Assembly (NCBI GenBank): GCA_964016885.1
Contig: OZ024741.1
Span: forward strand, 84,692,001-84,756,000
DNA length: 64,000 nucleotides
Direction of reading: 5' to 3'
Source: Eledone cirrhosa
Taxonomy: Eukaryota
The position numbers were made by a program, and so were the translations under genes. A model generated the notes under the pieces. It was not told where the DNA came from. It saw only the letters and a list, made by a program, of their open reading frames with translations, and did no database searches. Each line of letters opens with the position of its first letter. Position 1 is the stretch's first letter. Of the stretch, positions 3,001-62,100 are shown piece by piece.

Positions 3001-3058
3001 GACGTTCCTAGGAATGGCTCCAGACGCTTGAAGAACTCTGGTCGCGATGTCCCAGTCG
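1..3058 (-). mobile_element. Tx1-like (L1 clade) non-LTR retrotransposon copy C: ORF2 only (part of APE endonuclease, RT, C-terminal CCHC), frameshifted, runs off the window start
   Basis: Minus-strand ORF pieces 2790-2990 (LAGDWNGILD, APE), 1870-2583 (KSPGLDGIPYEFY), 1327-1806 (LINLDQSKEFDRVDH, RQGSPL), 902-1390 (YADA, mutated YADD); CPRC..ETVLHAIVQC near 330-385. Colinear with copies A and B. Confidence 0.9.
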
Positions 3059-3065
3059 ATGTCCC

Positions 3066-6000: not shown

Positions 6001-7757
6001 TTTTGTGGTGTCTCTTTTTTTGTTTTTTAGATTTCCGAGGCTCTCCTTCTTCACTTAAAGAAGAAGCCTAAACTGTTTGTGAATAATCATCGAGTGTGGG
6101 GTAGGGGTATGTTGTGTGGTGGTGGTATTTCGGTGTGTGTGTTTGTGGTAGTGTTTGATGGAGTGGGGATGGGGTGGGGCTGTGTTCTTCAGGGGTGTTG
6201 TCTGTGTTTTTTCTGTTGTTTTTGGTTGAGTGGCTATTTGTTTTTGGTGTGTTTGCTTGTTTCGTGAGTTGTTGTTGTGGTGGTGGTTGTTTTGGTGTTG
6301 GTGTTGGTAACAGTGTTTTCTTTTGTATTGTTTTGGTTCAGCGTGTTTGTAAAGGGCAGGAGGCCTTTAGGTGTGTTGTACTATTGCAACGAAAGCAATG
6401 TGGTTTTGATCCCTCCACCGAAATGTTTATGTGGCTGTTGTTGTCCACCAGCACTTTTTCTGGTATTTTGGAGATTCTTTCTGGGCTCATTTGCACCAGA
6501 ATTTCTAAATTTGTACCAGACCAGGTGTGTCTGGTTGACTTTTTGATGGAGAGAATAGTGTCTTTTCTCTCCTCTAAAAATCCTGCCAATACCCACCAAA
6601 TATTAATATTTGGTGGTATGTTTGAAACTCTAATTTTTTGTGTCTTTCTTCCCAGGTATGTAGGGAAAAAGGTATATTTGTGTGACAGTATTGGCGTCAC
6701 TGAGTATCTTTGTGCAAGGGCCTCGCTTTTGAGGAGTACCGAAATACTCCCGTACTGTTTGGCCCTCTGCATAAAGTCAATGTCTGGCAATATCTCCTTC
6801 AAGGTTGCCTCAATTTCCCCTTGGCTGAGGAATGCTGGTCGTTTTGTTTCCTTTGAAACAGTTCTGAAGGTTTGTCCTTCGAAATGTTTCCTGACGAATT
6901 TCTGGGGGTGAGTTTATCTGAAATCCACCGTTTTCACCGAAAGTGATAAACTCCTTTGCTTCAGAGAGCATCTGTTTCGCATTGGAGATATCGATATCCT
7001 TGAACTCTTGTGTCTTGATGACTGTTTGCGCAAAAGTTTTTTTGGTGTTGTTGTTATCGTTGTTGGTGTGGTTGTCGGTTTTTTCCGTTTGTAGTTGTAT
7101 CAATGGTTTTATTTTCTGTTGTTGTTTGTGTTGTTTTGGGGTGTCTGTTGTACCATCATGTGTGGTTCGATCTTGTTTATATTTGTGTTGTCCATATTGG
7201 TTTCCATGGTGAAGCCAATACATGCAGAGTTAGAGGTAACGTTATTATTATTTGTGACTGTTTTCGTAAAAGTTATTTTTTTGGTAGTTGTTGTTGTGGT
7301 GGTTGTCGGGTTTTCCGTTTGTAGTTGTGTCAATTGTTTTTTCTGTTGATTTTGGTGTCTGTTGTACACTGTGTAGTTCACTGTGCGATTCAATTTTGTT
7401 TGTGTTGTCATCTTCACACGTTACACAAAACTTTGTTAACTACATCGATACAGGCAAAGTTCTTAACAACGTTAAAGTCTATTTCTTCTTTCCTTTTTCC
7501 TTCTTCAATGTTCGTTAGCGTTCTTTGAACGCTTGCCATAGCTGATGGCAAAATATTAAACATTTTTAACAGTTTTCAAATTAATTTCAAATTAAATTTT
7601 CGCCCTTGTGGGGGCGAAAAATGAGATTGCCACCCAGCTGACAATTCAGCCTGGGGATTAATCTACAAAACAATGTGTTTTTTTTAAACAAGAATTTCTG
7701 TTTTTTGTAAATAAATTGACAGAAACTTACCAGCAAAATTGTGTGCGTGCCGCTACT

Positions 7758-7758
<1 letters not shown>
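3066..7758 (-). mobile_element. Tx1-like LINE copy B: 5' end, ORF1 and ORF2 (APE + RT), 3'-truncated
   Basis: ORF1 pieces 7109-7417, 6810-7223, 6338-6802 (zinc knuckle CFRCNSTTHLKASC), 5509-5745; ORF2 starts 5467 (MASLRVGSVNVRGL, LLVGDWN, SYLDRF), RT 3202-4056 (DQSKAFDRVDH, YADD). 5' end abuts (AGAT)n at 7759. Confidence 0.9.

Positions 7759-7795
<37 letters not shown>
7759..7795. repeat. (GATA)n microsatellite separating Tx1 copies A and B
   Basis: agatagat... about 9 units. Confidence 0.95.
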
Positions 7796-7796
<1 letters not shown>

Positions 7797-10700
7797 GTTT
7801 CTATTTATTTGCCACGAGGGCACAAAATAAGAGGACAAATACAAGGGGAGGAATTTACGTAAAGGAACGAGTAAAAAACAAATAACAAATATAAAATTAA
7901 CAATACAGTCCTCAATAGGGAGGAGGCGTTTTGGGAGTTACACACACCCCCGAAGAAGTGTGTAACCCTTTTCCTTAGGAGCACAGAGAGGGGGTGCTCC
8001 TTTGAACTTCCACCTTTCCACCTACAGGCTGATAAAGAGAGAAGGCCCATTCACACGGGCCATTTACGCTACTTTCACCCACCTTTCATATAACTTGCTG
8101 GGGTAGAGCACCTCTCTCTCCATTCTAATCCTTCTCTTAAAATGGTATTTAAAGAAAAGGACCAGTTGTTGGCCAGAGAGAAAGGTATCCGACCTCAGCC
8201 CTTTCAAACGTGTCCACCATACCACCTCTTTCACCATGGCTATTACACAGAGGAAGACCGCCTCTCCTTCATTTTTGAAGGGGAGAGGCGGCTTGATCGT
8301 TATAATGGACTCGGTAGTCAACCGGATTGGTCCCACCCGTGACAGCAGTCGTTCGACATAGCCCCACAGATCGGCAACGCCCAAGCAGTGTACCAATGCG
8401 TGCGCAACGGTTTCCTCGTCGCGCACGCATCTGGGACAGATCTTCTTCGAGGGGTCCCTATCCGGGCGCCCGTGTCTGTAGAGCTTTTCTCGAACGGGCA
8501 GCACCCCTCGGTAGCACTGCTAGGCCAGGGACCTCTGGAAGTTGTCCATAGGTCCCGGGCCAAATGTCCTGCGGAATAGGCTAGAAGGTTCGTCTTCTTC
8601 CATGCCTAGGGCTTGTCTGAGGGCGTCGTTGCACCTACTAATCACCAGCCCTCTATAGAATGACGAGGTGGAGTCTCCACCGACAGCCGGGTCCGCCTGC
8701 CAGAGAGCCTTGAGCGCCTGGGCACACTCGGTGTGCCAGGCGCCTAGTTTTCTCGGTCTTTGCTTGACCCAGGACTGCAGCTCGGTGAGCGACACGAGTC
8801 TCGGAAAGGCTCGCCTCACAAAACGGGCCCACACCGGTTGACCGGTGAGGAATACCTGGAGGTGCCGTAACCTTAATGCGTGTTTACGTATCTCCAGCCA
8901 GGGCATCCCCAGCCCTCCTTTTGAAGGGTGTTGACAGCAGATGGATCTCCTCACCAAAGGGGCCCGCTTCTTCCAAAGGAAATGGAAGAGTGCGCGCTCC
9001 ATTTTCGTGAGCGTTTCCCTTGGGCAAGGCACGATGGTCAGGCGGTAATAGATGACGGACGCTATATAAGCGTTCGCCACCTCTGCCCGACCTTTCAGGG
9101 ATAGTTTGCACTCAGCCCACTTCTGCGTCAGCGCAAACACCCTGTTCGATACCTCACTCCAGTTCTTCTCCACCTGGAGGTCTGGCCCGAACCAGACCTT
9201 GAGCAACTTCACCTGGCCCTCCATCCAACGTCCACAACGCCGTTGGAGACCATCGGTTTGCCCCTCCACTCGCCGAGTTGCAAACCGTCTGACTTGTCCC
9301 GGTTCAGCTTAGCCCCTGTAAACTTTTCGTATATCTCCAGTAAGGTGCCGATCACTCCGATTTTCGAGGCGGTTGACAGTATTACTGTCACGTCATCGGC
9401 GTAGGCCGACACCGCTTTCCGCAATCCCGGTTCTAAAGGGATGCTCTGTAAAAACTCCAACTTCCGCAGCAGTGGCTCTAGGGCCAATACATACAGAAGG
9501 GAGGAGAGAGGGCATCCCTGTCGGATGGACCGCGTGATTTCGAATGACTCGGAGAGGTAGCCTTTCACCTTGACCCTAGAGCAGATGCGGCTGCTGTGCA
9601 TGGCAGTGATCCGGCCCCTTAAAACGGGTCCAAAATCTGCCGCCAGTAGCACCGCATCCAGGTAACGATGGTCGACCCTATCGAACGCTTTAGATTGATC
9701 CAAGTTGATCAGGGCCCCACCAAAGCCGGGTCCGTTCCCAACCCTCTCTATGATGTATCGCATGAGCTGGAGGTTGTCGTGAATGGACCTGGACGTGATG
9801 GCGCATGTCTGCGCATCTCTCACCAGGTTGCCCACGACAAGCGCCAACCTCTTTGCTAACACCTTGGCCAAAATATTTAACTCTGCATTTAGCAGAATTA
9901 TGGGCCTAAAATTATTTATTTCATCCTCCTTGTTCTCGTCCTTCCTCATTAGGCGAGACTATGCCCTTGGTCACAGAACAGGGAATTCTCCCGTTCTGTT
10001 GCCAGTTGCAGTAGACCGCCTCAAGGAGATCGAAGAACAAGTTCGGCATACTTAAATACAGTTCGTATGGAAGACCATCGAAGCCCGGAGATTTGCGTCT
10101 GCCGCATTGGCTCAGCACGTCCCCTATTTCAGCAGATGAGATTGGCCTCTCGCAGGACTTCACCTCCTCGTCCGAAAGACGCGGCAGGCCGTCGAGGCAT
10201 GGACCGAGGTCCATATCCCCATCCTGCCCCTCGCCCCTCCGACCAATCGGGAAAAGTGCCTTTGAAAGGCCTCGCACATCTGCTTAGGTTCAAGGATCAC
10301 TCGTCCATCCTGGTCTCGCAAAGACCGGATAGTGGATGTAATCCCACTGTTGGCTTCTGTTTCGCGGGCCCAGCTAACAGCTTTGGTACCCCCGTTTACC
10401 AGAGCACGTATTTTGCTTCGGACAACGCAGCCTTCGTGTTTCGCGTCGAAGAACTGGCCCAAGGCCGTTCTCGACGCTAGCACTCTGGCTACGTCGCCGC
10501 TTCTAATTGCCTCTTCTACACTATCTACCAACTCCCTTTCCTTCCTATTTCTATCTGAGGCTAACTCCTCACTGACTCCTATTGAAGCTACTCTAATCTC
10601 TCTTTTGAGAGAGCCCCACCACCTGCTGTTGACGATGGCGTCCGTCAGCCGCTCCCTAACTAAAGTACTAATCCGGTCCCTGTAAGCATTACTTGCCAAT

Positions 10701-13628
10701 AAGGACAAGTTGAGCTTCCAGTAACCGGGTCCCTGTCTATGCGTTCTATCAAGGTTGACCATGGAGGTCACTAATTTGTGGTCTGAATAGCCAACCATGA
10801 GAATTTCTGGACAACTTAAAAGTCCCTATCTTTATTTCTAACTAAGAACCTATCTAGGTACGATCTAGATTGACCGCCATGGTTTGCCCAAGTCCATGTT
10901 GGCACAGTCGGAAAATCTAGTCGATATCTATCGGCCAGGTCGGATCGGCCGATTAACCCTTTGAGGCTGCTACAACCCCCTCTATCAGGACATGCTCCTA
11001 CATAGTCCCAACGTGCATCTAGGATACCATTCCAGTCCCCCGCTAAAAGCAAGGAGCGGGACGTCCCTAGAAAAGTCTCCAGACGTTGGAAGAAGTCCGG
11101 CCGCGCTGACCCAAAAGGGGCGTAGTCGGCGACCAGCCTAAAGGCTCCGCCTTCACCACTGCCAACGTCTAAAACCACCAGTCGACCCTCCGGGTCCAGG
11201 TGTACCGTCTGTGCGGCGAGACCCAGATGTGTTTGTAGTAGAACGACAACCCTACTCCCATCTCCGGGTTGACAGAGAGATGCGTGCATCTCAAAGTCGT
11301 TAAAGGTGGGGCTAGCTGGCGCACGCTACTGATCCGGGCCTCGCAAATGACCATCACATTTATACAGCGTGACCTGAGGTCATTTAGAAGTTTTGCTTGC
11401 TTCCAATATGAGCCCAGACCACGCGCATTTAGACAAGCCACTCTCAATACAGCCATGTTGGTGATAGAGAAAATGGAGGCACCTACCTCTCTGCGTCCCG
11501 GAGACCAGGCCGCACAATTTCCATGGTGGTGGAGGAGGGGTTGCTGGGTGGTGTGGTGGTTTGTGGTGGTGTGGGGACATCAGAGTGTGGTGGGGTTGGG
11601 GTATTTGGTGTGGTGTGGGTGTCTGGGGTGGGGTGGGGAAATTTTTCAAGAGGACTCGTTTCATTGGTTTTACACAGGGAGGGGGTGCTCAGGAAAATTG
11701 TCTTTTAGTTCTATATAAATGTCTATCGGAGTTTTAATCATTTTTAAAGAAGGGTTCTCTGTGGCCCTCGTGAAATTTGGCCCCTCGGTTTACACCGAAG
11801 GGTTTTGTTCAATTTTGTTTACAAGTTTTATATTTTTTGTGTTGAAGTATGTGTATAGTTGTATCTGTGTAATTTTTGTTGGTTTTTGTTCTGTATTTTT
11901 TTTACTTTTGTTTTGGGGAGGGGTTATTTTCCTTTGTGTGGGTGCGGTGTGTTTCCTTTTTTTTCGCTTTATTTTTTGGAAGGGTTCCCCCTCGTCTTCT
12001 GACGTTAAGGGATCCTCTTCCATGTTGGAGGGTAGGGGTATATTTTGGGGTTTTGTTATGTATGTTGTTGTAGTTGTTTTAGGTGGGGAGGGGTTGGGTG
12101 GGACCGTGTTCAGTTTTTTGTTGACTTGTTGTGTTTGTTGTTTTGGGGGTGGTGGTGGTGGTGGTGGTGATTGTGTTTTTGTTTGTGGCGTTGTTATGGG
12201 GTGGAGGGTTTGGGTGGGTCCATGTTCAGTTTTTTGTTGACTTGTGTTTGTTGTTGTCGTTGTGGTGGTGGTGGTGTTGTTTTTGGAGGTGTTGGCAGTA
12301 AAGGTCTTTTAGTTTGTTGAGGACAGGCAGCCCTCAGGTGACCTCTGCCTCCACAGAAGTAGCAAACGGGCCACCTACCCTCAACTGCAATGTTCATAAT
12401 TTGGGAGCCTTCCAGGGACACTCTTTGGGGTATTCTTGCGATACGTTCTGGTTTCATTCGAACCAGACCCTGTATGCCTATACGGCCAAAGTGGCCCCCG
12501 GTGGCTTTGCCTATATCAAGGAGTTCATCTTCGTCGTCCAGTATCCCTCCTAGTATCCACCACATATTGTATTTGGGTGTATACCGGAGATTGTTATTTT
12601 TTGAGTTTTCTTCCCCATATAGGTGGAGAAGAAAGAGTACTGTTTGGTCACAATTGGCGACACAGAGTATTTTTGGGCCACCAATTGGTCCTTCATCAAA
12701 ATTGTCAGACTCCCATATAACTTCCCTCTCTCAATAAAAATCATGTCCTTCAACGCGTCTTTTAACACCAGCTCAATTTCGCTATGCGATAATTGAGCTG
12801 GTTTTTTCGACGCATTTGATATAGTTCTAAAATTAATTGTCCTTAGGACCGTGTCTCTTTTAATATCCTTAGGGGAGATTATGGTGAATTCACCGTTTTC
12901 ACCGAAGCTCACCTGTTTTCTCCCCTCTTTTAGCAATTCCGCTGCATTACTGATGTCAACTGGGGTGAAAGTTTCGGTCTCCTTAACGACCTAGGCAAAG
13001 GATATTCGTGTAGTGGGGTCTTTGTTTGTGTTTCGTTGCTGTTGTTCTTGTTTTCTTGGGTGTTTGCGTTTTGGTTGTTGTTGTTTGCGGTACAGTTTTG
13101 GGGGTTTTCACACATTTTTAGGGGTTTTGAGTTCACATTTATGTTGTTTTCTTTGTCATTGTTGCTGCTGTTTTCGCTTTTGTGTGTGTTTGTGTTATTT
13201 TCTTTGTTATTTGTGTTGGTGTTGTTGGTGTCAGTGTAATTTATACATTCTTTCAATTTGGTGTTTCCAATGTTTGGGTTATTACCTAAGTTTTTAGAAT
13301 TGTTCGCCAAATACACTTCCATACGCGCATGCGAAAGCGAGAGAAGGGTAGCTTCAGTAGGTTGAGTTACTTGTTACTCTTTATCCCTTTCCGTGAGGGG
13401 CGTGGCAGTTGTGTTTTCATGTATGGTGTCCATTATTGTAAGTTGGTATACACATTTTTCAAAGAAGTTTTTACCCCCAAAAAGGGGTAAAAATAAAATA
13501 ACCACTCGTCTGCAAGTCCAGGCGGGAGGTTAGGTTACACAAATAAAGCAAATGAAAAACAAACTCAGTCAAAAACGTAATACAAATCCAAAAGGCTGCA
13601 GCCGAAGTAACACACGTCTACTATCAGC
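7796..13628 (-). mobile_element. Apparently full-length but decayed Tx1-like LINE copy A (ORF1 + ORF2 APE-RT-CCHC)
   Basis: ORF1 13322 to ~11480 (CYFCGGRGHLRAAC); ORF2 11456-8064 in frameshifted pieces (CLNARGL, LAGDWNGILD, RQGCPLS, YADD, CPRCVRDEETVAHALVHC). On the minus strand AATAAA lies just before the (TATC)n tract. Confidence 0.92.
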
Positions 13629-38100: not shown

Positions 38101-38178
38101 GATCTGTCACGGGCACGGCACAATTTCAAATCGGGCCGTTTGTTTACAAACGAATCGAGCATTATTATTAATGTTCGA

Positions 38179-38250
38179 GGGCGGCGGATTGGCAGTATCG
38201 GTAGAGGATCGGACGCCATGCATTGCAGCAAAGAGTTACGGCCCTTTATG
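38179..38250 (+). mobile_element. SINE 5' head fragment
   Basis: ggcggattggcagtatcggtagaggatcggacgccatgcattgcagca, as in 34759. Confidence 0.7.
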
Positions 38251-38942: not shown

Positions 38943-39004
<62 letters not shown>

Positions 39005-39049
39005 TGTATATATATATATATATTTAAATATATATATATATATATATGC

Positions 39050-39095
<46 letters not shown>

Positions 39096-39098
<3 letters not shown>

Positions 39099-42000
39099 TA
39101 TAGACATAGAATATTCGAAAATATTCTGTATGTTTATAATAAACATTTTGAAGACCTAATCGCTATAGAATAGAATACGTCACGTATTACAATTAGATTC
39201 TCGATAAAAGCAAGGGAAGTAAGTCTACGCGTTTCATTCTCGTTAGAAATCGTCAGGACTACATATCCAGTGCTTTCATCGAGAATGACACAGCTAGAGA
39301 CTTATAGAATACTTAGCTGTGTACAGGAACTGGTTTGAAAGAGCGGTTGCCGGTCCGGCAGAAATTAGAAATTGGAATAAATGCTCTGAAATAGCGATAT
39401 ATATGTGAATATAGACATAGAATATTCGAAAATATTCTGTATGTTTATAATAAACATTTTGAAGACCTAATCGCTATAGAATAGAATACGTCACGTATTA
39501 CAATTAGATTCTCGATAAAAGCAAGGGAAGTAAGTCTACGCGTTTCATTCTCGTTAGAAATCGTCAGGACTACATATCCAGTGCTTTCATCGAGAATGAC
39601 ACAGCTAGAGACTTATAGAATACTTAGCTGTGTACAGGAACTGGTTTGAAAGAGCGGTTGCCGGTCCGGCAGAAATTAGAAATTAGAAATTGGAATAAAT
39701 GCTCTGAAATAGCGATATATATGTGAATATAGACATAGAATATTCGAAAATATTCTGTATGTTTATAATAAACATTTTGAAGACCTAATCGCTATAGAAT
39801 AGAATACGTCACGTATTACAATTAGATTCTCGATAAAAGCAAGGGAAGTAAGTCTACGCGTTTCATTCTCGTTAGAAATCGTCAGGACTACATATCCAGT
39901 GCTTTCATCGAGAATGACACAGCTAGAGACTTATAGAATACTTAGCTGTGTACAGGAACTGGTTTGAAAGAGCGGTTGCCGGTCCGGCAGAAATTAGAAA
40001 TTGGAATAAATGCTCTGAAATAGCGATATATATGTGAATATAGACATAGAATATTCGAAAATATTCTGTATGTTTATAATAAACATTTTGAAGACCTAAT
40101 CGCTATAGAATAGAATACGTCACGTATTACAATTAGATTCTAACGAGAATGAAACGCGTAGACTTACTTCCCTTGCTTTTATCGAGAATCTAATTGTAAT
40201 ACGTGACGTATTCTATTCTATAGCGATTAGGTCTTCAAAATGTTTATTATAAACATACAGAATATTTTCGAATATTCTATGTCTATATTCACATATATAT
40301 CGCTATTTCAGAGCATTTATTCCAATTTCTAATTTCTGCCGGACCGGCAACCGCTCTTTCAAACCAGTTCCTGTACACAGCTAAGTATTCTATAAGTCTC
40401 TAGCTGTGTCATTCTCGATGAAAGCACTGGATATGTAGTCCTGACGATTTCTAACGAGAATGAAACGCGTAGACTTACTTCCCTTGCTTTTATCGAGAAT
40501 CTAATTGTAATACGTGACGTATTCTATTCTATAGCGATTAGGTCTTCAAAATGTTTATTATAAACATACAGAATATTTTCGAATATTCTATGTCTATATT
40601 CACATATATATCGCTATTTCAGAGCATTTATTCCAATTTCTAATTTCTAATTTCTGCCGGACCGGCAACCGCTCTTTCAAACCAGTTCCTGTACACAGCT
40701 AAGTATTCTATAAGTCTCTAGCTGTGTCATTCTCGATGAAAGCACTGGATATGTAGTCCTGACGATTTCTAACGAGAATGAAACGCGTAGACTTACTTCC
40801 CTTGCTTTTATCGAGAATCTAATTGTAATACGTGACGTATTCTATTCTATAGCGATTAGGTCTTCAAAATGTTTATTATAAACATACAGAATATTTTCGA
40901 ATATTCTATGTCTATATTCACATATATATCGCTATTTCAGAGCATTTATTCCAATTTCTAATTTCTGCCGGACCGGCAACCGCTCTTTCAAACCAGTTCC
41001 TGTACACAGCTAAGTATTCTATAAGTCTCTAGCTGTGTCATTCTCGATGAAAGCACTGGATATGTAGTCCTGACGATTTCTAACGAGAATGAAACGCGTA
41101 GACTTACTTCCCTTGCTTTTATCGAGAATCTAATTGTAATACGTGACGTATTCTATTCTATAGCGATTAGGTCTTCAAAATGTTTATTATAAACATACAG
41201 AATATTTTCGAATATTCTATGTCTATATTCACATATATATCGCTATTTCAGAGCATTTATTCCAATTTCTAATTTCTGCCGGACCGGCAACCGCTCTTTC
41301 AAACCAGTTCCTGTACACAGCTAAGTATTCTATAAGTCTCTAGCTGTGTCATTCTCGATGAAAGCACTGGATATGTAGTCCTGACGATTTCTAACGAGAA
41401 TGAAACGCGTAGACTTACTTCCCTTGCTTTTATCGAGAATCTAATTGTAATACGTGACGTATTCTATTCTATAGCGATTAGGTCTTCAAAATGTTTATTA
41501 TAAACATACAGAATATTTTCGAATATTCTATGTCTATATTCACATATATATCGCTATTTCAGAGCATTTATTCCAATTTCTAATTTCTGCCGGACCGGCA
41601 ACCGCTCTTTCAAACCAGTTCCTGTACACAGCTAAGTATTCTATAAGTCTCTAGCTGTGTCATTCTCGATGAAAGCACTGGATATGTAGTCCTGACGATT
41701 TCTAACGAGAATGAAACGCGTAGACTTACTTCCCTTGCTTTTATCGAGAATCTAATTGTAATACGTGACGTATTCTATTCTATAGCGATTAGGTCTTCAA
41801 AATGTTTATTATAAACATACAGAATATTTTCGAATATTCTATGTCTATATTCACATATATATCGCTATTTCAGAGCATTTATTCCAATTTCTAATTTCTG
41901 CCGGACCGGCAACCGCTCTTTCAAACCAGTTCCTGTACACAGCTAAGTATTCTATAAGTCTCTAGCTGTGTCATTCTCGATGAAAGCACTGGATATGTAG

Positions 42001-42508
42001 TCCTGACGATTTCTAACGAGAATGAAACGCGTAGACTTACTTCCCTTGCTTTTATCGAGAATCTAATTGTAATACGTGACGTATTCTATTCTATAGCGAT
42101 TAGGTCTTCAAAATGTTTATTATAAACATACAGAATATTTTCGAATATTCTATGTCTATATTCACATATATATCGCTATTTCAGAGCATTTATTCCAATT
42201 TCTAATTTCTGCCGGACCGGCAACCGCTCTTTCAAACCAGTTCCTGTACACAGCTAAGTATTCTATAAGTCTCTAGCTGTGTCATTCTCGATGAAAGCAC
42301 TGGATATGTAGTCCTGACGATTTCTAACGAGAATGAAACGCGTAGACTTACTTCCCTTGCTTTTATCGAGAATCTAATTGTAATACGTGACGTATTCTAT
42401 TCTATAGCGATTAGGTCTTCAAAATGTTTATTATAAACATACAGAATATTTTCGAATATTCTATGTCTATATTCACATATATATCGCTATTTCAGAGCAT
42501 TTATTCCA

Positions 42509-42510
<2 letters not shown>
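39096..42510. repeat. Tandem array of a 311-bp hammerhead-containing unit (retrozyme-like) with an internal inversion at ~40140, embedded in (TA)n
   Basis: Left-arm unit starts at 39096, 39407, 39725, 40036; right-arm CTGACGA cores at 40441, 40759, 41070, 41381, 41692, 42003, 42314; minus-strand cores at ~39250, 39561, 39879. Confidence 0.95.
40437..40475 (+). ncRNA. Minimal type I hammerhead ribozyme motif (representative of 10 apparently identical copies)
   Basis: AGTC-CTGACGA-tTTCT aacg AGAAt-GAAA-cgcg-TA-GACT; intact core, palindromic stem III (ACGCGT), predicted cleavage after GUA. Confidence 0.88.
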
Positions 42511-42551
<41 letters not shown>

Positions 42552-43028: not shown

Positions 43029-43166
43029 TTTTTATTAAAATTACAGATTAAAGTTTAAGCAAAGAATCGTTGCTTTCACCCTTAACGGGATCTTCAAATT
43101 TATTATTATATATATATATATATATACATATGTGAGAAAAACCACAGACCCTCCATCTCAACTCTA

Positions 43167-43202
43167 CTTTTGAAAAGCAGAAGAACTGCGAAACCGGTAA
43201 AG
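43167..43202 (+). ncRNA. Degenerate hammerhead motif between (TA)n tracts
   Basis: CTT-TTGAAAA (decayed CTGAAGA)-GCAG aagaa CTGC-GAAA-ccgg-TA-AAG. Confidence 0.5.
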
Positions 43203-43344
43203 GAACCAAATAAATATATATATTTAAAAAAAAAATAAGACTCCAGTTTCATTTTCGATTTCATCTTTTTTTCTTTATACTTTCACTCGTGTAGGACAAC
43301 TCGTTATTTTTCATTTTGTAAAAAAACCTCACTTTCTAATATGT

Positions 43345-48692: not shown

Positions 48693-50360
48693 CAAAGTGG
48701 TTCATTTTTGTGATAATGGAAATAAATCGGTGAGTAGGAATGTGTGTGTGTGTGTGGGGGGGGGGGGGTTATTTTAACATGTTGAAACATATTTTCCAGC
48801 TGTCTTATACGGAGAAGTGTGTGTGAGTGTGTGTATGTCTGCTTGTGTGTTAATGTTCACGTGTGGTATGCGTGCGTGTATGTGGGAGTGTGTGTGTGTG
48901 TGTGGATGGAGCAGTATTTTTGTGGTACTGGCAAAAATGGCGTACATTATTCGATAGTTTCAGTCATTTGCACAAACGATTCTCTCAAAAGAACATCAAT
49001 AACATCAATAATAAAAGATGTGAAATGATGTATAGTATTGTCATAACAACAAGGCGTGTGTGAGTCCAGATTGTACGTACTGCAAGGGGAATCCATTAGG
49101 CCCTGCCGTATGGGATACTTGTATACAAATATGTATGCACCCATCAATGTGCAATACATGTGTGCGTATGTGTATGTATGCGTGTCGGCACGTGTATATC
49201 TATAAACATCAAAAGGTATGCGAATTTGTGTATATTTGTGTTACACCATAGAACATGTGTGTTTGCACATGTCATTGTGTTTATATGTAGATAGAAATGT
49301 ATGTAGGATGTATGCTGATGTAGGTATGTATGTCAACGTGTGTATGTTGTGGGTTCTCCTTAGGAAGAAGTGTTTAGACGGGGTCCGTATTTGTTAATAA
49401 AGTGAGATTCCTTGCTGATGCGCTGGGTGTGGGTGGCATTATCTTTAAATTTTGAGAGGGGAAAGATTCTAAAGTTTGGAGGATTTGAGGCGGCACAGAT
49501 ATCAATGTGTTCACTCAGTGCTATTTTTCTGTATTCCCGTATGATTTGGGATCCCGTTTTGGGTTCCCGTTTATTTTGGGATCTATGGCCAGTCATGCAT
49601 TGGCGGATGCTGTTCTAGTCTGGCCTATGTATTGTTCTTGACAACCTGAGCAAGTTAATACATATATTAGGTTTTCTGATGCGCATGTGAAATTGTGTTT
49701 TACTATAAAACGTTGTCCTTGTTTGAAATAGAATTCTAAACCCTCTATTAGGTTGATCCATATACCACAGTTGAGTCTATCGCATTTTTTTTACTGTGGA
49801 CTTCGTTGTTGTGGTTGGCATGTGTTAGGCTGTTTTTCATTTACTTAGATTGTCTTTTGCTCTTTATGATATCGTGTGTTCAAAGAATTTGGTTCATTCT
49901 ATTGTCCTTTTTTAATACAGGGATGTTTTGGAGGATGGTGTCAAAGGCCTCATTGTTGAGGGGGTTGTGTGTGGAGATGTATGGAAGAGCTAGTTTCGGT
50001 TGATTAACTTTAGGATGTCTAAGGTCCTGGGTACTGAGTATTAGATCAGGTTGGATTCCATTGTCAATTAGTGATGGAGGGTAGTCCCTGCTTACGAGTG
50101 TGTCCTTTTGTTCTTGTAGACGTAAGTAACAAGTGTTTTTATTGGAAACTATAGTACAGATTATCTTGGCTAAGTATTAGGGAATATTAATTTTAACGTG
50201 TCTAGGATGGCATGTATTAAAAGGAAGATATTGCTTGGAGTCTGTGGGCTTGTAGTATATGTCCGTTTCTATGTTTTTGTTATGAATCTTAATGAGGATG
50301 TCGAGGAAGGGGAGTTGTTGATGGCTGTATTCCATTGTAAAATTAATATTCTTACTCAAT
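47925..50360 (-). mobile_element. 5'-truncated Neptune-like Penelope element (RT C-terminus, zinc finger, GIY-YIG) with microsatellite-rich 3' region
   Basis: 50177-50359 INFTMEYS..LPFLDILI..TDIYYKPTDSKQYL..CHP; ~49790-49620 KCDRLNCGI..FTCASENLIYVLTCSGCQEQYIGQT; 49360-49596 RISKESHFINKYGPRLN. The 3' boundary is approximate. Confidence 0.8.
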
Positions 50361-52141: not shown

Positions 52142-54280
52142 AATACACAGGTATCAAAGTTATGTTTAAAACATTTAATCGCTGACAATTGTTTCTTCCA
52201 AACTTAGGCTTGGAGTCCTCGGAGCATTATCAATGTTTGTACATATGATTAACCTCCTATTCAACTGAAGAATCATACAGATACATATATATTGATGTTG
52301 TGGACAACAGTTTCATGTTTACAGTGTGGAATGGATGCGACGTATATTATATTATACGAGAATTGTACAATAATTCAAATTAAGATTAAAATTAAAATTA
52401 AAAGCATAGGGTGGAATACATGCGTCAGATAATACAGATAATACAAGAGAATAGTCTAATAATTAAATTAGAGAGATAGTACATGCGTTAGTCATATATA
52501 TAGGAACGGAACAAGCAAATGTATCATGCATATATGAGTACTGTATGGAAGGCTATTATATAAAATACAAGCACTTTAAGCGAATATGTTAGTGTATTAT
52601 GGTGGGTGCAATGTGAGGATATTTTCTGTATAGTTCAAATTTGTATGTGTAGAATATGAAAGTTACAGATTTCACATCCATTACATAAGTTAAGATATAT
52701 TTGTATTGAATGTTTGTTATAGTAATGGATTGTTATTAGTGTTATTTAATCCATATTTATACATTAGAGTTGTTTAACTGCGGGAATTTTCAACGGTTTA
52801 ATATCCGGAAGTGGATATGGAATTAAGGGGAGCTAATGTGTAAGGAGAGATAACTAGCTCATTATAATAATTACATTTCTTGCTCTAATATACATTATAT
52901 AGTGCCTCAATTGTATCCCTTATATAAAAAGTTATATATTTATATTTAATTTTAAATACAGTCTACTCTCTCATAATATATTAAAGGTTTCATTAGATTG
53001 TTGTCTACCCAATATTTGGTAAGATATGGAATAACGTATAGCTGTTTGCATGATAAACTAGGTACATCTCTTGAGTAAATCAATTAATCCTTTATATACA
53101 TTGTTATTAATTTATACATCTAATTATAAATGTATATATAATTCATTGTTCCATATTACATTTAAGTTAGATAAATCCCTTATGTTAATAAATTAATTCT
53201 TTATATACAATGTTATTAATTTATACATTTAATTATAAATGTATATATAATTCATTGTTACATTTATAATATAAATTTAATATATATTGTATTATAATTC
53301 AATCACTATATAATTATAAGTAATCTAAAGTAATTATATTAAAAGGTGGTGACTATAAGAATATTTCTAGAGTATAAAGTTGTAGATAAAAATGATTTGT
53401 GTAGAGGAAAGGGGGGGGGGGCTCAAAGAGTGTGACACAGCTGTGGAAGGTAAGTCTTAGAGGTGAAGTGCTAATGGTGGTGATGAGTTCAAATCTGACA
53501 TTGTTATAAAGCTGTTTAAAGCTATGGAATGAGTGTCGGAAGCGGTGCTGGCACGATGCAAACACTTCCGATTTTTTATTTAGGAGGTTAAGATTCGAAA
53601 AGATTATAGTATGGGTCTCTAGGAGACAGAGGTTACAAAATGTATTAGGTGGTTTATACGATGCAGCCCTACCTACTACTTCCCATTGAAGTGTATATGG
53701 TCTATTCCTAGTTTTCAGATAGTGTATGTAGCTAGATAGTGAAGTGGAGTTGGCTAGATTGAGTTTTTTGAAAGAGTGGAGGTGCGTGTTGTATTTCGTC
53801 TTGAAGCAGTTCGAAGTAGAGCCTATATATGTTTTAGAAGAGTTGTTAGTGTTGACCGTGCAGGAGTAAATGATGTCTTTGATTAAGCAGATTTTACCTA
53901 AAGGGCAGGTTCTATTTGATCTACAGTTACATTTATTTTGGATGTTAACTTGTCGGTTATTATGTTGTGTAGAAGTCTGGTTGCTAGGGATAGTATTAGG
54001 GCTATGATGGTTGTCGTTCCTAGTGTTATTGATTTCATTAGTGTTATTACTATTATTACTATTGCTATTAGGGTGTGTAGTTATTATGTTGTTCTGAAAG
54101 TTTACCTCCTGCTGTGTTTTAATTTGTTGAAAATAAGTATTAATCTTTCTTTTATTACTACTAACTATATGGTATGCTATGTTAGGTGTGGTAGAGTAAG
54201 AGATTTTAATGGTGTTTTTATTTATAAGATTATGGTACTTGTGGCCAGATGGGAAGTTTTTTTCTTCTAAGGTAGAAATA
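52140..54280 (-). mobile_element. 5'-truncated Naiad-like Penelope element with 3' pLTR and hammerhead variant
   Basis: Minus strand NKCNCRSNRTCPLGKICLIKDIIYSCTV..KTYIGSTSNCFKTKYNTHLHSF (~53940-53770); HHR-like GCT-CCGAGGA..GAAA-caattg-TC-AGC at 52181-52225, then (TA)n. Confidence 0.8.
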
Positions 54281-54461
54281 AATTATTGACCTTCCCTGTT
54301 TATAGTTATTTATAGTATATATATACATAACTATAAATAGTATTTTTAATATTTTATATATATATATATATACAAAAGTTTTATTTAAATTGTTGGGATA
54401 CAACAAGCAAATATTTTTATAACTGATATAAAGCACTCGACAAATATTTGGAGTAGATATA

Positions 54462-57400
54462 TGATATTAATAAATGGAAACTATATTTATAAAACCATAT
54501 TTATTTCATTATATATATTTCAAGGATACCAAGTTACATTATGGTATGCCTTCATCAGACAGAATACAATATATAACAGTTTTATAAATAGACTTTGACG
54601 TACCCCTTTTAAAAATTGACCGTTGTTTTTGGAGGCCATCAGGATAGTGATTTGTTTACTTTAGAGAGTCATAGTGTTAAGAGTAAGTAAAACGATGGAG
54701 AGAGAGAGAGAGAAACGTGGAGAAAAGAAAGGGAGAGATAGATAAAGAAAAAGAAGAAAACAAAAAGAAAAGAGAACAGAGGAAAATTAACGGGGAGATA
54801 TCAAACCATCAGACAGAGAAAAAAATCCAGAGAGAGATATATAGAGATAGAGAGAGGGGGGAGAGAACGAAAGCCTTAAGTTATGTCATATTAAGTTGAG
54901 TTAACAATTGGGATGAAAAGCATAAATAAAATTAGAAATATTAAAATTCATGAATGGAATATAGATATATATGAGAAATTACACATTGTTTAATTATGAT
55001 TAGATATTTAGTTTAAAATTGAGATCAATATATTAAAAGTTGGAATTTAAACATTATAAAATATATAATTCGCTAGAGAGATTATCTATCGCATATTACA
55101 GACACATAGGCAAAGGTACATAAATATATATATATACACACTCACTCAGAAAATACACATTATATCTACTCCCGTACATAATATATATATACAAAGCATA
55201 AGTGATTTTTTGCCATACATTCCCTGTGTTATTAATTAAAAATTAAAAGTTTTTAGTATATATATATAAATATATAGGATTTACTTTCATGCATTTATGG
55301 CTGTTAAGTTATGCATATCTGCAATCAAAAACTGCATGTGTAAGCCTGTACATTCACATCCATAATTCTTAGCTATACATGAATAGATATGTGTGTGCAT
55401 CTTCAATTGGTATACACGCGTCACTCATGCATATATACAGACAGACATATAATCATAAAAAAGCATATAACACATGTATATGTATGTCAACACACACATA
55501 TAGATACATTAGCCGTATATAGATATAATCAACATATAACATATACATAGTACAATTGAGTATATAAAATATAAAATACAAAAGGATTATATTTTGGAAA
55601 TATAATTATATCAATATAACTTAAAAAGCAAACGAATTCTACAAATATCAAAATACTAAAATATCCCAAAATATTATAGAATATTTTAAGTTAAAATAAT
55701 ATGTTTAATATATTTAGTATAGAAATTAATCTTACGTATATTTTAATCAAGATATTGAAAGGACAAACTTTTGAAAATTATGAGAAGCTATCAGAATAAA
55801 AAATAAATCTAATAAAAATTATGAGAAGCTATCAGAATAAAAACAAATCTAATAAAAACAAATCTAATAAAAATAAAAAATAAAATGAATCTAATAAAAA
55901 ATAAATAAAATGAATCTAATAAAAAATAAAATAATATATCAATATAACTTAAAAAACAAGGATTCTACAGATGTCAAAATATTAAAAAGTTTAAAATAAA
56001 AATTAAAATAAAAATAAAAATAAAAATAAAAATAAAAATAAAAATAAAAATAAAAATAAAAATAAAAATAAAAATAAAAATAAAAAATAAATAAAAAATA
56101 AAAAATAAAAATTAAATAAAAAATAAAAAATAAAAAATAAAAAATAAAAAATAAAATTTAAAAAAATTGTTAAAATTTTTTTTAAAATTTCAAAAATTTT
56201 TTTTTAAATCTTTAAAATTTCAAAAATTAAAAAAAAATTTTTTTAAATTTTAAAAACTCTTAAAATAGAATATTTTAAGCTAAAATATGTTTAGTATAGA
56301 AATTTATCTTACGTATATTTTATTCAAGATATTGAAAGGATAAACTTTTCTAGAATAGTTTATTATATTTATAATTATATTTATGAAGAAAATTTATACT
56401 TGGGTACTTAATGAAAGAAAATGAAAAAGGTGAAGGAATCTATATGATTTATCGACAGGTTAGATATTTTAACTAAATTACTTAATTAATTAAACTACAT
56501 TTTAAATTTATATTTATATTTAAACGTTGAGTTCAATCTATGTCTGCAGGAACTGAATAAATTATTCCTTAAATTAAGGGAATTTTTGGTCTTTAATATA
56601 AAAAAAAAATATTTCCTCTATACAAAGGTCACAATTTTCTGAAGAGGAATTAAAAGGAGTAGCTTTCTGAAATAATATTCCAAATCAGCGAATATTCAAC
56701 ATTATCTCGTTTTAGGTCCCATAATAGGCTAGATAGCGAAGTTGAAGATTTTTTGTTTGGATCTGTAAAAGAATTTTTATGATTATTGAAGCGGGATTTA
56801 AATTCTGTAGAGGTAGAACCGACATAGTTAAATGAATTTAAATTAGTTTTAACATTACAATTATAAACTACATTTTTAGCTAAGCAGTTGTTATTTAACG
56901 GACAATTGGATTTATCTCTACAGTTACAGTTATTCGATTGAATATTGCTTGGGTTATTATTGGTATTTTGGTTAGGTTTTAAATTTCTATTATTAATTCT
57001 ATTAATATTTTGCGCTAAATTTTTGGTGGAAGAGTAGGTTAATTTTATAGTATGTCTATTAAAAATTGAGTAATATTTATGTGTTCTAGGGAATCGTTTG
57101 TCAAGAGCTTTAAAGAATAGTTTAGCAATAGGGGTTTTAATATTTAGTGAGAAAGGGGGAGCGAACCATAATATATTCCTAGTTCTATTTCTTTTTCGGC
57201 TTTCGGAGTTATAGTAATATTTTCTATTATGGTTGTTGAAATTGTTACCATAATTAAAGTTGTTATTATTTTGGTTATTTTGTATATTATTATTATTATC
57301 GATGTATTTAATTTTATTTCTATACCCAGCTCTACCTAACGCTTCGTTGTAATAATGCGCTTTTTCCTCAAATATATTCTTATTAGATGAAATTCTTGAA

Positions 57401-57920
57401 ATTCGTTTTTGAACAGAGTTCACTATAGTATTTTTAACGGATCTGCGGTGATTAGAGTTAAAATTGTCATAATTTAAGTTCTCATTTAGTTTGTGAAATG
57501 GATAATGAAGATGTGTTGAGATTTAGTGTTACATCTAGAAAATTGACTATTTTATGGTTATTCTCTATTTCTACTTTTAGATTAAGGTAATTAAAAAATT
57601 GTATTTGTTTTCTTTTTCTATTTAGTTCACAGCTATTATTTTCTATAAGTAAAAGCATGTCGTCACGATATAAGCCTCCGGTTACATCTGGAATTTTTCT
57701 ATGTAGAGAATTAATTATAAATAGGCCCACAAGGTCCGTTACCTGAGCTGAGTCTGAAGATCCCATAGTTATGTCGAAATTATTATTTCTATCTGCCCTA
57801 GTCCAGAGTTGGTTATTAAATTCTATTAATGTTTTCCGTGCCGATAATATAATGTGCATTTCATTGCTAGTTAGGTCTGTATGTTTAAATGCGTAAGTTA
57901 GTGCCTTATTCAGTAGATTA
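54462..57920 (-). mobile_element. Inverted left arm of the Penelope element (copy of 58319-61989)
   Basis: ORF 56650-57423 ILWFAPPFS..IKLTYSS..CNCRDKSNCPLNNNCLAKNVVY..NYVGST; near-perfect reverse complement of the right arm. Confidence 0.92.
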
Positions 57921-60900
57921 TTGAAGGAACTAAGGAAGAAATATAAAGTAGCAAATAAGGACGAACTTGAAAAACTGAATACAGATGCCTCTTGTATAAT
58001 GCATGAACTAGACATTGTAAATACAATACAACCCTTCATGCCAAGGAAACCTAAGATCAATATGAAGGATCATAAAAGAAACTTTGAAAATGATTTACCA
58101 GTCAGATTAATTGCACCATCTAAATCTGGCCTGGGCAGACTTAGCAAAAATATTCTAGACAGAGTTATACAACAAATTAAGAATTGACCTAATTTATCTT
58201 ACTTAAAATTATGGAAAGGGACTAGTGAGCTTATCGACTGGTTTAAAGAAATTAAATATAACTATAATAATAAGTTTATTCAGTTGGATATTGCTAACTA
58301 CTACTCATCTATCACTCCTAATCTACTGAATAAGGCACTAACTTACGCATTTAAACATACAGACCTAACTAGCAATGAAATGCACATTATATTATCGGCA
58401 CGGAAAACATTAATAGAATTTAATAACCAACTCTGGACTAGGGCAGATAGAAATAATAATTTCGACATAACTATGGGAACTTCAGACTCAGCTCAGGTAA
58501 CGGACCATGTGGGCCTATTTATAATTAATTCTCTACATAGAAAAATTCCAGATGTAACCGGAGGCTTATATCGTGACGACATGCTTTTACTTATAGAAAA
58601 TAATAGCTGTGAACTAAATAGAAAAAGAAAACAAATACAATTTTTTAATTACATTAATCTAAAAGTAGAAATAGAGAATAACCATAAAATAGTCAATTTT
58701 CTAGATGTAACACTAAATCTCAACACATGTCTTCATTATCCATTTCACAAACTAAATGAGAACTTAAATTATGACAATTTTAACTCTAATCACCGCAGAT
58801 CCGTTAAAAATACTATAGTGAACTCTGTTCAAAAACGAATTTCAAGAATTTCATCTAATAAGAATATATTTGAGGAAAAAGCGCATTATTACAACGAAGC
58901 GTTAGGTAGAGCTGGGTATAGAAATAAAATTAAATACATCGATAATAATAATAATATACAAAATAACCAAAATAATAACAACTTTAATTATGGTAACAAT
59001 TTCAACAACCATAATAGAAAATATTACTATAACTCCGAAAGCCGAAAAAGAAATAGAACAAGGAATATATTATGGTTCGCTCCCCCTTTCTCACTAAATA
59101 TTAAAACCCCTATTGCTAAACTATTCTTTAAAGCTCTTGACAAACGATTCCCTAGAACACATAAATATTACTCAATTTTTAATAGACATACTATAAAATT
59201 AACCTACTCTTCCACCAAAAATTTAGCGCAAAATATTAATAGAATTAATAATAGAAATTTAAAACCTAACCAAAATACCAATAATTTACCCAAACAATAT
59301 TCAATCGAATAACTGTAACTGTAGAGATAAATCCAATTGTCCGTTAAATAACAACTGCTTAGCTAAAAATGTAGTTTATAATTGTAATGTTAAAACTAAT
59401 TTAAATTCATTTAACTATGTCGGTTCTACCTCTACAGAATTTAAATCCCGCTTCAATAATCATAAAAATTCTTTTACAGATCCAAACAAAAAATCTTCAA
59501 CTTCGCTATCTAGCCTATTATGGGACCTAAAACGAGATAATGTTGAATATTCGCTGATTTGGAATATTATTTCAGAAAGCTACTCCTTTTAATTCCTCTT
59601 CAGAAAATTGTGACCTTTGTATAGAGGAAATATTTTTTTTTTATATTAAAGACCAAAAATTCCCTTAATTTAAGGAATAATTTATTCAGTTCCTGCAGAC
59701 ATAGATTGAACTCAACGTTTAAATATAAATATAAATTTAAAATGTAGTTTAATTAATTAAGTAATTTAGTTAAAATATCTAACCTGTCGATAAATCATAT
59801 AGATTCCTTCACCTTTTTCATTTTCTTTCATTAAGTACCCAAGTATAAATTTTCTTCATAAATATAATTATAAATATAATAAACTATTCTAGAAAAGTTT
59901 ATCCTTTCAATATCTTGAATAAAATATACGTAAGATAAATTTCTATACTAAACATATTTTAGCTTAAAATATTCTATATTTTAAGAGTTTTTAAAATTTT
60001 TAAAAAATTTTTAAAATTTTTGAAATTTTAAAGATTTTTTTTTTTAAATTTGAAATTTTTTTTAAAAATTAAAAAAAAATTTTTTAAATTTCTTTATTTT
60101 TTATTTATTTTTTATTTTTTATTTATTTTTTATTTATTTTTTAATTTTATTTTTATTTTTATTTTATTTTTATTTTTATTTATTTTTATTTTTATTTTTA
60201 TTTTTATTTTTATTTTTATTTTTATTTCTATTTCTATTTTTATTTTTATTTTTATTTTTTTTATTTTTATTTTTATTATTTTTATTTTTATTTTTATTTT
60301 TATTTTTATTTTTATGTTTATTTTTATTTTTATTTTTATTTTTATGTTTATTTTTATTTTTATTTTTATTTTTATTTTTATTTTTATTTTTATTTTTATT
60401 TTTATTTTTATTTTTATTTTTATTTTTATTTTTATTTTTATTTTTATTTTTATTTTTATTTTTATTTTTATTTTTAATATTTTGACATCTGTAGAATCCT
60501 TGTTTTTTAAGTTATATTGATATATTTTATTTTTTATTAGATTTATTTTTTATTAGATTCATTTTATTTATTTTTTATTAGATTCATTTTATTTTTTATT
60601 TTTATTAGATTTGTTTTTATTCTGATAGCTTCTCATAATTTTTATTAGATTTATTTTTTTATTCTGATAGCTTCTCATAATTTTCAAAAGTTTGTCCTTT
60701 CAATATCTTGATTAAAATATACGTAAGATTAATTTCTGTACTAAATATATTAAACATATTATTTTAACTTAAAATATTCTATAATATTTTGGGATATTTT
60801 AGTATTTTGATATTTGTAGAATTCGTTTGCTTTTTAAGTTATATTGATATAATTATATTTCCAAAATACAATCCTTTTGTATTTTATATTTATATACTCA

Positions 60901-61989
60901 ATTGTACTATGTTATATGTTGATTATATCTATATACGGCTAATGTATCTATATGTGTGTGTTGACATACATATACATGTGTTATATGCTTTTTTATGATT
61001 ATATGTCTGTCTGTATATATGCATGAGTGACGCGTGTATACCAATTTAAGATGCACACACATATCTATTCATGTATAGCTAAGAATTATGGATGTGAATG
61101 TACAGGCTTACACATGCAGTTTTTGATTGCAGATATGCATAACTTAACAGCCATAAATGCATGAAAGTAAATCCTATATATTTATATATATATACTAAAA
61201 ACTTTTAATTTTTAATTCATAACACAGGGAATGTATAGCAAAAAATCACTTATGCTTTGTATATATATATCATGTGCGGGAGTAGATATAATGTGTATTT
61301 TCTGAGTGAGTGTGTATATATATATATTTATGTACCTTTGCCTATGTGTATGTAATATGCGATAGATAATCTCTCTAGCAATATATATATTTTATAATGT
61401 TTAAATTCCAATTTTTAATATATTGATCTCAATTTTAAACTAAATATCTAATCATAATTAAATAATGTGTAATTTCTCATATTATATATCTATATTCCAT
61501 TCATGAATATTAATATTTCTAATTTTCTTTATGCTTTTCATCCCAATTCTTAACTCAACTTAATATGACATAACTTAAGGCTTTCGTTCTCTCCCCCCTC
61601 TCTCTATCTCTATATATCTCTCTCTGGATTTTTTTCTCTGTCTGATGGTTTGATATCGCCCCGTTATTTTTCCTCTGTTCTCTTTTCTTTTTGTTTTCTT
61701 CTTTTTCTTTATCTATCTCTCCCTTTCTTTTCTCCGCGTTTCTTTCTCTCACTCCATCTTTTTACTTACTCTTAACACTATGACTTACTAAAGTAAACAA
61801 ATCACTATCCTGATGGCCTCCAAAAACAACGGTCAATTTTTAAAAGGGGTACGTCAAAGTCTATTTATAAAACTGTTATATATTGTATTTTGTCTGATGA
61901 AGGCATACCATAATGTAACTTGGTATCCTTGAAATATATATAATGAAATAAATATGGTTTTATAAATATAGTTTCCATTTATTAATATC
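57921..61989 (+). mobile_element. Naiad-like Penelope element, 5'-truncated: RT + GIY-YIG, long AT-rich 3' region, terminal pLTR
   Basis: One frame 57921-59312 with a single TGA at 58185: KDHK..VRLIAPSKSGLG, QLDIANYYSSI, FDITMG, GLYRDD, VNFLDVTL; frameshift ~59290 before the GIY-YIG; (TTTTTA)n tract ~60080-60476. Confidence 0.92.
61886..61950 (+). ncRNA. pLTR hammerhead motif (mirror copy at 54502-54566, minus strand)
   Basis: TATTTTGT-CTGATGA-AGGcATACCA taatgtaact TGGTATCCTt-GAAA-tatata-TA-ATGAAATA. Confidence 0.65.
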
Positions 61990-61990
61990 G

Positions 61991-62100
<110 letters not shown>

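Follow-up and report, generated by a model that had tools for sequence, protein, structure and literature searches.

The 311-bp tandem repeat described here is probably a non-LTR retrozyme that is copied into the genome by the reverse transcriptase (RT)/GIY-YIG protein of a Penelope-like element (PLE), with priming on both strands of the target. The repeat lies in a 64,000-nt stretch of the genome of Eledone cirrhosa (contig OZ024741.1 of assembly GCA_964016885.1), referred to as the window, and it is part of the same best explanation, in which we have moderate confidence, that the locus is a single recent insertion of a non-coding tandem hammerhead repeat with two divergent arms. All retrozyme features that can be assessed from DNA were found, and the insertion signature of PLEs is present.

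Structure of the array

The original prediction, made from the bare DNA, described about 11 near-identical units of 311 bp that form one homogeneous array without a protein-like open reading frame and are inserted in (TA)n. Tandem Repeats Finder returned two 311-bp arrays, at 39086-40141 (3.4 copies) and 40138-42512 (7.6 copies), in total 11.0 units. Measured from cut to cut, seven of the nine whole units are identical 311-mers and the other two are 318-mers carrying a 7-nt duplication. Unit number, near-identity, the lack of a protein-like frame (the longest stop-to-stop frame within the array has 59 codons, making it non-coding) and the (TA)n on both sides were thus as described, but the single array has to be replaced by two arrays of opposite orientation. 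The complete hammerhead motifs are divided accordingly between the strands, with three on the minus and seven on the plus strand, and since the left arm lies on the minus and the right arm on the plus strand, the ribozyme-sense 3′ ends face outward (Table 1). The unit, with 311 bp and 35% GC, is within the range given for retrozymes (tandem repeats of ~170-400 bp, GC under 45-50%), and the monomer RNA is predicted to fold with -72.9 kcal/mol (z = -4.04; 0 of 100 shuffles as stable).

Table 1 Features of the two-armed array, in window coordinates. Unit position 1 is the first base after the predicted ribozyme cut.
Feature	Position	Strand	Remarks
Left (TA)n target tract	38973-39095		
Left (tail-less) arm	39095-40141	-	~3.4 units; outer end at about unit position 131
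Right (tail) arm	40138-42512	+	~7.6 units; outer end at unit position 166-168
Arm junction	40138-40141		4-nt microhomology (unit 289-292 vs unit 25-28); arm offset 47 nt
Tail, PLE-type, right end only	42476-42510	+	35 nt; unit 132-166
Right (TA)n target tract	42512-42548		Target-site duplication not resolvable here
Reference monomer, cut to cut	40790-41100	+	311 nt, 35% GC; predicted self-paired RNA
Right-arm hammerhead motif 1, type I	40435-40478	+	Predicted cut after 40471
Further identical right-arm motifs	40753-40796, 41064-41107, 41375-41418, 41686-41729, 41997-42040, 42308-42351	+	
Right-arm predicted cuts	after 40471, 40789, 41100, 41411, 41722, 42033, 42344	+	
Left-arm hammerhead motif	39848-39891	-	Predicted cut after 39855
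Identical left-arm motifs	39530-39573, 39219-39262	-	
Left-arm predicted cuts	after 39855, 39537, 39226	-	
Half hammerhead	40138-40167	+	Cut off by the junction; without CUGACGA core
7-nt duplication stretch, left arm	39666-39697	-	450 nt from the junction
Same 7-nt duplication stretch, right arm	40629-40660	+	497 nt from the junction; mirror position

The hammerhead motif

Ten copies of the motif have the complete layout AGTC-CTGACGA-stem II-GAAA-CGCG-TA-GACT, which agrees with the ten hammerheads of the original prediction, where 'intact' holds in the sense of a complete motif only. The assignment to type I was borne out by a descriptor that matched none of 5000 dinucleotide shuffles of the unit. 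A search of Rfam at E ≤ 1 returned no hammerhead match and only microsatellite-driven miRNA noise, and the motif call therefore rests on the descriptor and on comparison. Stem I (GUAGUC/GACUUAC) contains a one-base bulge and the core reads CUGACGA...GAAA; stem II consists of four pairs over a U-U mismatch at its base, and stem III of a single A-U pair closed by CGCG. Owing to this architecture of stem III, the ACGCGU palindrome would be able to pair between two motifs, and a duplex of -7.5 kcal/mol is predicted for this contact. In folding predictions the monomer prefers another structure, with the hammerhead fold 3.6 kcal/mol above the minimum, and the stem II pair probability in the dimer is ~0.1; the modelled energies suggest a weak monomer ribozyme and possible activity as a dimer.

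All 10 hammerhead haplotypes with at least five copies (403 of 413 copies at 40 loci picked by their ends) keep the catalytic core, and variation among them is found at N7, at position 10.1, in loop II and in stem I. The change from U to A at position 10.1 closes the stem II mismatch, and the stem I variants either lose the bulge or gain a G-U wobble. Judged from sequence, this constancy of the core suggests selection for function, and ribozyme activity is predicted.

A young family of dispersed two-armed insertions

The retrozyme family that had been proposed was recovered in the genome-wide search: the 3.0-Gb genome contains 12,718 copies with the CUGAUGA core and 387 with the CUGACGA core, thus at least 13,105, counted as exact core matches with N7 = A copies outside the count. 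The family is young and occupies over 1,000 dispersed loci, and the claim that the insertion in the window, which falls in the minor CUGACGA group, is very young is supported by the genomic evidence.

We fetched 76 other loci, 36 of them chosen regardless of their ends and 40 chosen as paired ends. Among the former, two arms were present at 32 of 36, and in 28 of these 32 the outer ends fall at unit positions ~124-140 on one side and ~161-174 on the other. Throughout the genome, 1,006 tail ends (166) and 1,245 tail-less ends (131-140) adjoin (TA)n, and the genome-wide search for ends at the ribozyme cut gave 0 matches, which rules out priming at the ribozyme-made 3′ end. Along the first 218 Mb of C1, an outward-facing tail-less partner was present within 20 kb for 54 of 78 tail ends; 23 further tail ends lacked a partner among the matches listed, one had another geometry, and the same stretch held 0 tail-tail pairs and one pair of tail-less ends. 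Insertions with paired ends have a median size of 2.4 kb. At L127 and L118, which are inserted in targets other than pure (TA)n, target-site duplications of ~14-15 nt can be read.

A sister retrozyme family of ~315 nt (L129-L158) is roughly 70-78% alike and has the same two ends. Its hammerhead differs in sequence, with the same U-U and a palindromic stem III, and compensatory changes, stem II included, separate the two families. The sister family is older and mostly has one to two units per arm. In three sequencing runs labelled as other organisms (X4, X5 and X6) we observed one 340-nt contig each, corresponding to a closed 310-nt variant that is ~99% alike; because tandem DNA assembles alike, these contigs were not used for circularity.

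Link to Penelope-like elements

PLE insertions are described as having an inverted truncated copy, a tail of 30-40 bp at one end only and a bias for (TA)n (PMC8557442). The array matches this signature by its inverted arm joined at the 5′ side, its one-sided 35-nt tail and its (TA)n target. A PLE protein nicks AT-rich DNA and extends both strands, and it starts reverse transcription at two positions inside the RNA between which the tail lies (PMC11167929); by analogy, the 35 nt between unit positions 131 and 166 would be consistent with two PLE RNA start sites. Young elements with RT and GIY-YIG domains and a CX2-5CxxC linker of the Neptune type are present in the genome, and coding PLEs of this kind show outward tail/tail-less pairs in (TA)n at 8 loci from 4 families, two of which end in TTTCYAAT, resembling the TTCCAAT of the retrozyme. 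The proposed mobilisation in trans by a PLE is therefore supported by the insertion ends together with the ends of coding PLEs in the genome. A LINE-type (L1) insertion was rejected, given that there is no poly(A) or simple-repeat tail and that both ends are internal unit positions.

For a coding partner we combined a GIY-YIG scan, local alignment against shuffles, an RT search and an inspection of the PLE neighbouring L125; of the 150 GIY-YIG loci listed from 10,597 candidates, 40 were covered. These 40 loci, with 8 endonuclease clusters, yielded no coding PLE that carries a homologous pLTR. The matches at L046, L065 and L079 turned out to belong to the sister retrozyme family, and those at L070, L074 and L083 to another pLTR with a similar stem II, so that these six were dismissed as partners. 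The latter is a pLTR-like element (L070:133-843, L074:7495-7705, L083:3100-3326) with a hammerhead core and stem II that nearly match those of the retrozyme; it often forms a short palindrome in (TA)n and has a tail of ~70 nt. The original prediction had itself named the occurrence of the unit only as the terminus of a coding PLE as one observation that would speak against it; at none of the 36 flanked loci does a PLE frame continue into a unit through readable sequence. PLE matches at 7 loci sit in the flanks; at L125 the matching element is separated from the unit by an N gap and terminates in a different pLTR. With no homologous pLTR at the 40 loci and no contiguous PLE frame at the 36, the retrozyme appears to be mobilised in trans.

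Formation of the arms and fate of new variants

Arm lengths are uncorrelated (rho 0.06, n = 65), the tail-less arm being the longer one in 25 of 65 loci and by over one unit in 20, and junction offsets are uniform (KS p = 0.70, n = 70). Among the 70 junctions, 44 have an overlap of 1-16 nt, 7 are blunt and 19 contain inserted or mismatched bases. Together, arm lengths and junctions speak for two cDNAs that were made independently and joined at microhomologies, rather than for a fold-back copy. The original prediction of a multimeric cDNA insertion hence stands as far as the multimer is concerned, but the insertion comprises two cDNA arms instead of one, which diverge and have outer ends that are fixed and differ from each other.

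Whole units equal the majority of their locus in 576 of 653 cases, and 29 different monomers occur over 68 loci; this identity within and diversity between loci imply that new variants go through a one-unit bottleneck. A>G changes (RNA strand) that are fixed locus-wide recur on 4, 4, 2 and 2 backgrounds (sites A21, A260, A277 and A219, at paired positions), and G260 of the window is one such change, which it shares with three loci of the same background. Among fixed changes we counted by hand 15 A>G origins versus 5 T>C (p = 0.011; the backgrounds may be recombinant), whereas single-unit changes run in the opposite direction (4 A>G versus 12 T>C); counted per site, the excess is not significant (A>G 7 versus 5, p = 0.40). 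The pattern of fixed A>G changes is suggestive, as it would be expected of A-to-I editing of a monomer template (circle).

The two arms of the window share the 7-nt duplication, which is present in 4 units genome-wide, 2 of them in the window at exact mirror positions. Because of this placement of a rare duplication, the two copies must share an origin, either by fold-back synthesis at this locus or by later arm-to-arm correction in the palindrome with its 47-nt spacer; within a palindrome, one arm can later be corrected from the other. The 39 other variants in mirrored zones are all private to one arm. Two further loci carry variants that are shared in register from the outer ends: in L178 (G000:C1:136719417-136725988) the first two units of both arms are of one haplotype and the following ones of another, and in L170 one variant is common to both arms. 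These two loci suggest that the template was multimeric and mixed, that both arms switched template in a joint jump, or that the element re-inserted into an array that was already older. In the same register, 63 of 65 loci are without a shared variant and 44 variants are private. The mirror test excluded the noisy loci L204 and L041 as well as L115, in which the junction is duplicated, and L038, which has a very short arm; loci without a whole unit were also dropped, and the count of arm lengths excluded L199 and L201 (atypical or cut ends).

Proposed mechanism and alternatives

The copied template is likely a unit-length RNA, probably circular, and the array likely stems from a rolling-circle template. 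In the mechanism that we propose, read-through transcription from either side would yield multimers of hammerhead sense, as there is always one arm directed away from the centre. The hammerheads, probably acting as dimers via the palindromic ACGCGU of stem III, are predicted to release monomers of 310/311 nt, which would be ligated to circles. A PLE endonuclease would make a staggered cut in AT-rich DNA, and from the observed ends an RT, presumably that of the PLE, would start at ~166 from one target 3′ end and at ~131 from the other, the latter probably helped by the AUAUAUAU stretch at unit positions 132-140; neither start is at the ribozyme cut. Each RT would then circle the template a variable number of times, and the two cDNA ends, the junctions of which are observed, would be joined by a repair route that uses short microhomology. 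At the locus in the window, one arm likely served as the template for the other, at least across the unit that bears the 7-nt duplication, during synthesis or later. A more specific version, in which a PLE RT dimer copies one ADAR-edited, ribozyme-made circle from both ends of the break and two-armed arrays are born whole, is put forward tentatively, as close to an even call. Two independent rounds of copying from a pure monomer circle do not account for the shared variants at three loci, that of the window included.

The shared variants bear most directly on a related explanation that we regard as unlikely, namely the same PLE double priming on a linear or multimeric RNA, uncut or re-ligated, with both RTs starting in one unit. 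It would accommodate the variants common to the arms of L178 and L170 in outer-end register as well as the predicted weakness of the hammerhead, but the 63 loci without such variants and the 44 private ones argue against it, a monomer bottleneck is required for a new variant to become fixed in every unit of both arms, an 8.4-kb arm would require ~27 uncut hammerheads, and L178 may alternatively result from re-insertion into, or conversion of, an older array. The mirrored duplication in turn raises the idea of a fold-back, which we consider rather improbable, where a single cDNA begun at the tail start would fold its 3′ end on microhomology and copy itself, and the second arm, a DNA copy, would join the target at the AT-rich stretch 132-140. 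The locus in the window, with its mirrored rare duplication, 47-nt loop, 4-nt microhomology and shorter tail-less arm, is well accounted for in this way, as is the position of the tail-less end on a (TA)-like stretch. As a general model, however, fold-back is ruled out by arm lengths, an excess of more than one unit in the tail-less arm (20/65 loci) being impossible for a copy; in addition, junction offsets have no bias to short loops, the arms of L178 do not mirror each other, among the variants in mirrored zones 39 are private and only the pair of the window is shared, although private ones may postdate the insertion, and later arm-to-arm correction gives the same mirror.

We judge it very unlikely that the unit represents the pLTR of a coding PLE that escaped detection, or that it began as a satellite dispersed in monomer form and later amplified locally in DNA. 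The partner search covered the 40 of 150 listed GIY-YIG loci given above, from 10,597 candidates, and the sister family mostly has one to two units, both of which lean towards such an origin; yet none of the 36 flanked loci has a PLE frame entering the unit, and unequal crossover yields neither inverted arms with fixed different ends nor the same new variant in both arms. That the inverted arms or the mirrored duplication are artefacts of assembly or of reads is hardly credible: no short-read contig among the matches listed spans the junction in the window and some loci are visibly noisy (L204, L041), but artefacts would not produce two different fixed ends per locus, target-site duplications and templated junction inserts, and in run X1 the short-read contigs include, at low depth, 11 joints that connect a left-arm with a right-arm position. 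Copying of a retrozyme RNA by a PLE protein that primes on both target strands is thus the reading that we retain.

A route by which animal retrozymes return to genomes has been proposed in the literature, and the mechanism of tandem and inverted PLE insertions was named as an open task (PMC8557442). The present family ties the two together through insertion structure, provides the exact predicted RT start sites (unit positions 131 and 166) and argues for arrays that arise in one event rather than by local amplification; the 311-nt unit and the young, intact-looking PLE proteins of the same genome constitute a substrate and candidate enzymes. If this is true, over a thousand young copies form a natural record of tandem and inverted insertion by PLEs, in which the mirrored duplication, the window locus' own contribution, and the haplotype switch of L178 would expose second-arm copying and template switching.

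Neighbouring elements in the window

Several other elements were noticed in the window. A PLE with RT frames is located at 54372-61991, 12 kb from the array, and consists of two divergent arms of ~3.5 kb each that end in a hammerhead with a palindromic AUAUAUAU stem III. Its frames are broken, a tail of ~90 nt on the left arm only results in an outward tail/tail-less pair like that of the array, and its Atlas neighbours carry HTH_animal; by its motifs it is presumably Hydra-like. A PLE endonuclease-like frame of 309 codons without a Pfam match (53353-54282, minus strand) adjoins its left arm. At 43130-43340 (plus strand), 600 bp from the array, a solo pLTR fragment with a tail, of Neptune-type family A, lies in (TA)n and has a variant hammerhead with a UUGAAAA core and an ACCGGU stem III. 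The minus strand also contains, at 49372-50359, a remnant of a Neptune-type PLE (broken 3′ fragment; about 57% to family A) and, at 900-13373, two degraded copies of LINEs in which frames for AP-endonuclease and RT and, in one copy, a zinc knuckle are present. A short GC-richer stretch at 38170-38250, possibly a SINE as judged by eye, is like pieces in the flanks of L077 and L082.

Comparison with known systems

In literature searches, with subscription papers and supplements outside their scope, retrozyme arrays with two arms and a one-sided tail did not turn up in any paper. The Eledone family resembles the metazoan non-LTR retrozymes (PMC7229834) in its tandem, low-GC, non-coding units of 170-400 bp with a type I hammerhead each, in its dispersed loci and in its self-paired monomer. 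The one-pair palindromic stem III is also seen in HHR_Amex1 and the basal U-U of stem II in HHR_Amex2, and axolotl retrozymes with these features cleave weakly as monomers and well as dimers (PMC7229834). Cleavage and circular RNA were demonstrated there, while both are predicted for the Eledone unit; conversely, two arms, fixed ends and a tail are features of Eledone that do not appear in the passages of PMC7229834 used for the comparison, and the word 'inverted' is absent from its main text. The same work proposed PLEs as mobilisers of retrozyme circles (Cervera and de la Pena 2020, PMC7229834), and a recent preprint regards animal retrozymes as derived, non-autonomous forms of PLEs (Li, Clavereau and Pollet 2026, 10.64898/2026.07.22.740005) on the evidence of co-occurrence and pLTR similarity, leans towards local amplification of the tandems and reports that one of nine Xenopus retrozyme dimers cleaved in vitro. 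In contrast to that preprint, the evidence from Eledone consists of insertion structure and favours arrays born whole, and pLTR homology was not found in the loci examined. With EN+ PLEs of the Neptune type (PMC8557442, PMC11167929) the family shares the inverted truncated copy, the one-sided tail, the (TA)n targets, a hammerhead with palindromic stem III and internal RT starts. Unlike these elements, it is without an ORF, and both of its arms are multimers of one short unit. Twin priming of L1 likewise uses two primers on one insertion and results in an inverted arm joined by microhomology. The Eledone arrays differ from L1 twin priming by the lack of poly(A), by two starts that are both internal and fixed, and by the fact that either arm may be the longer one.
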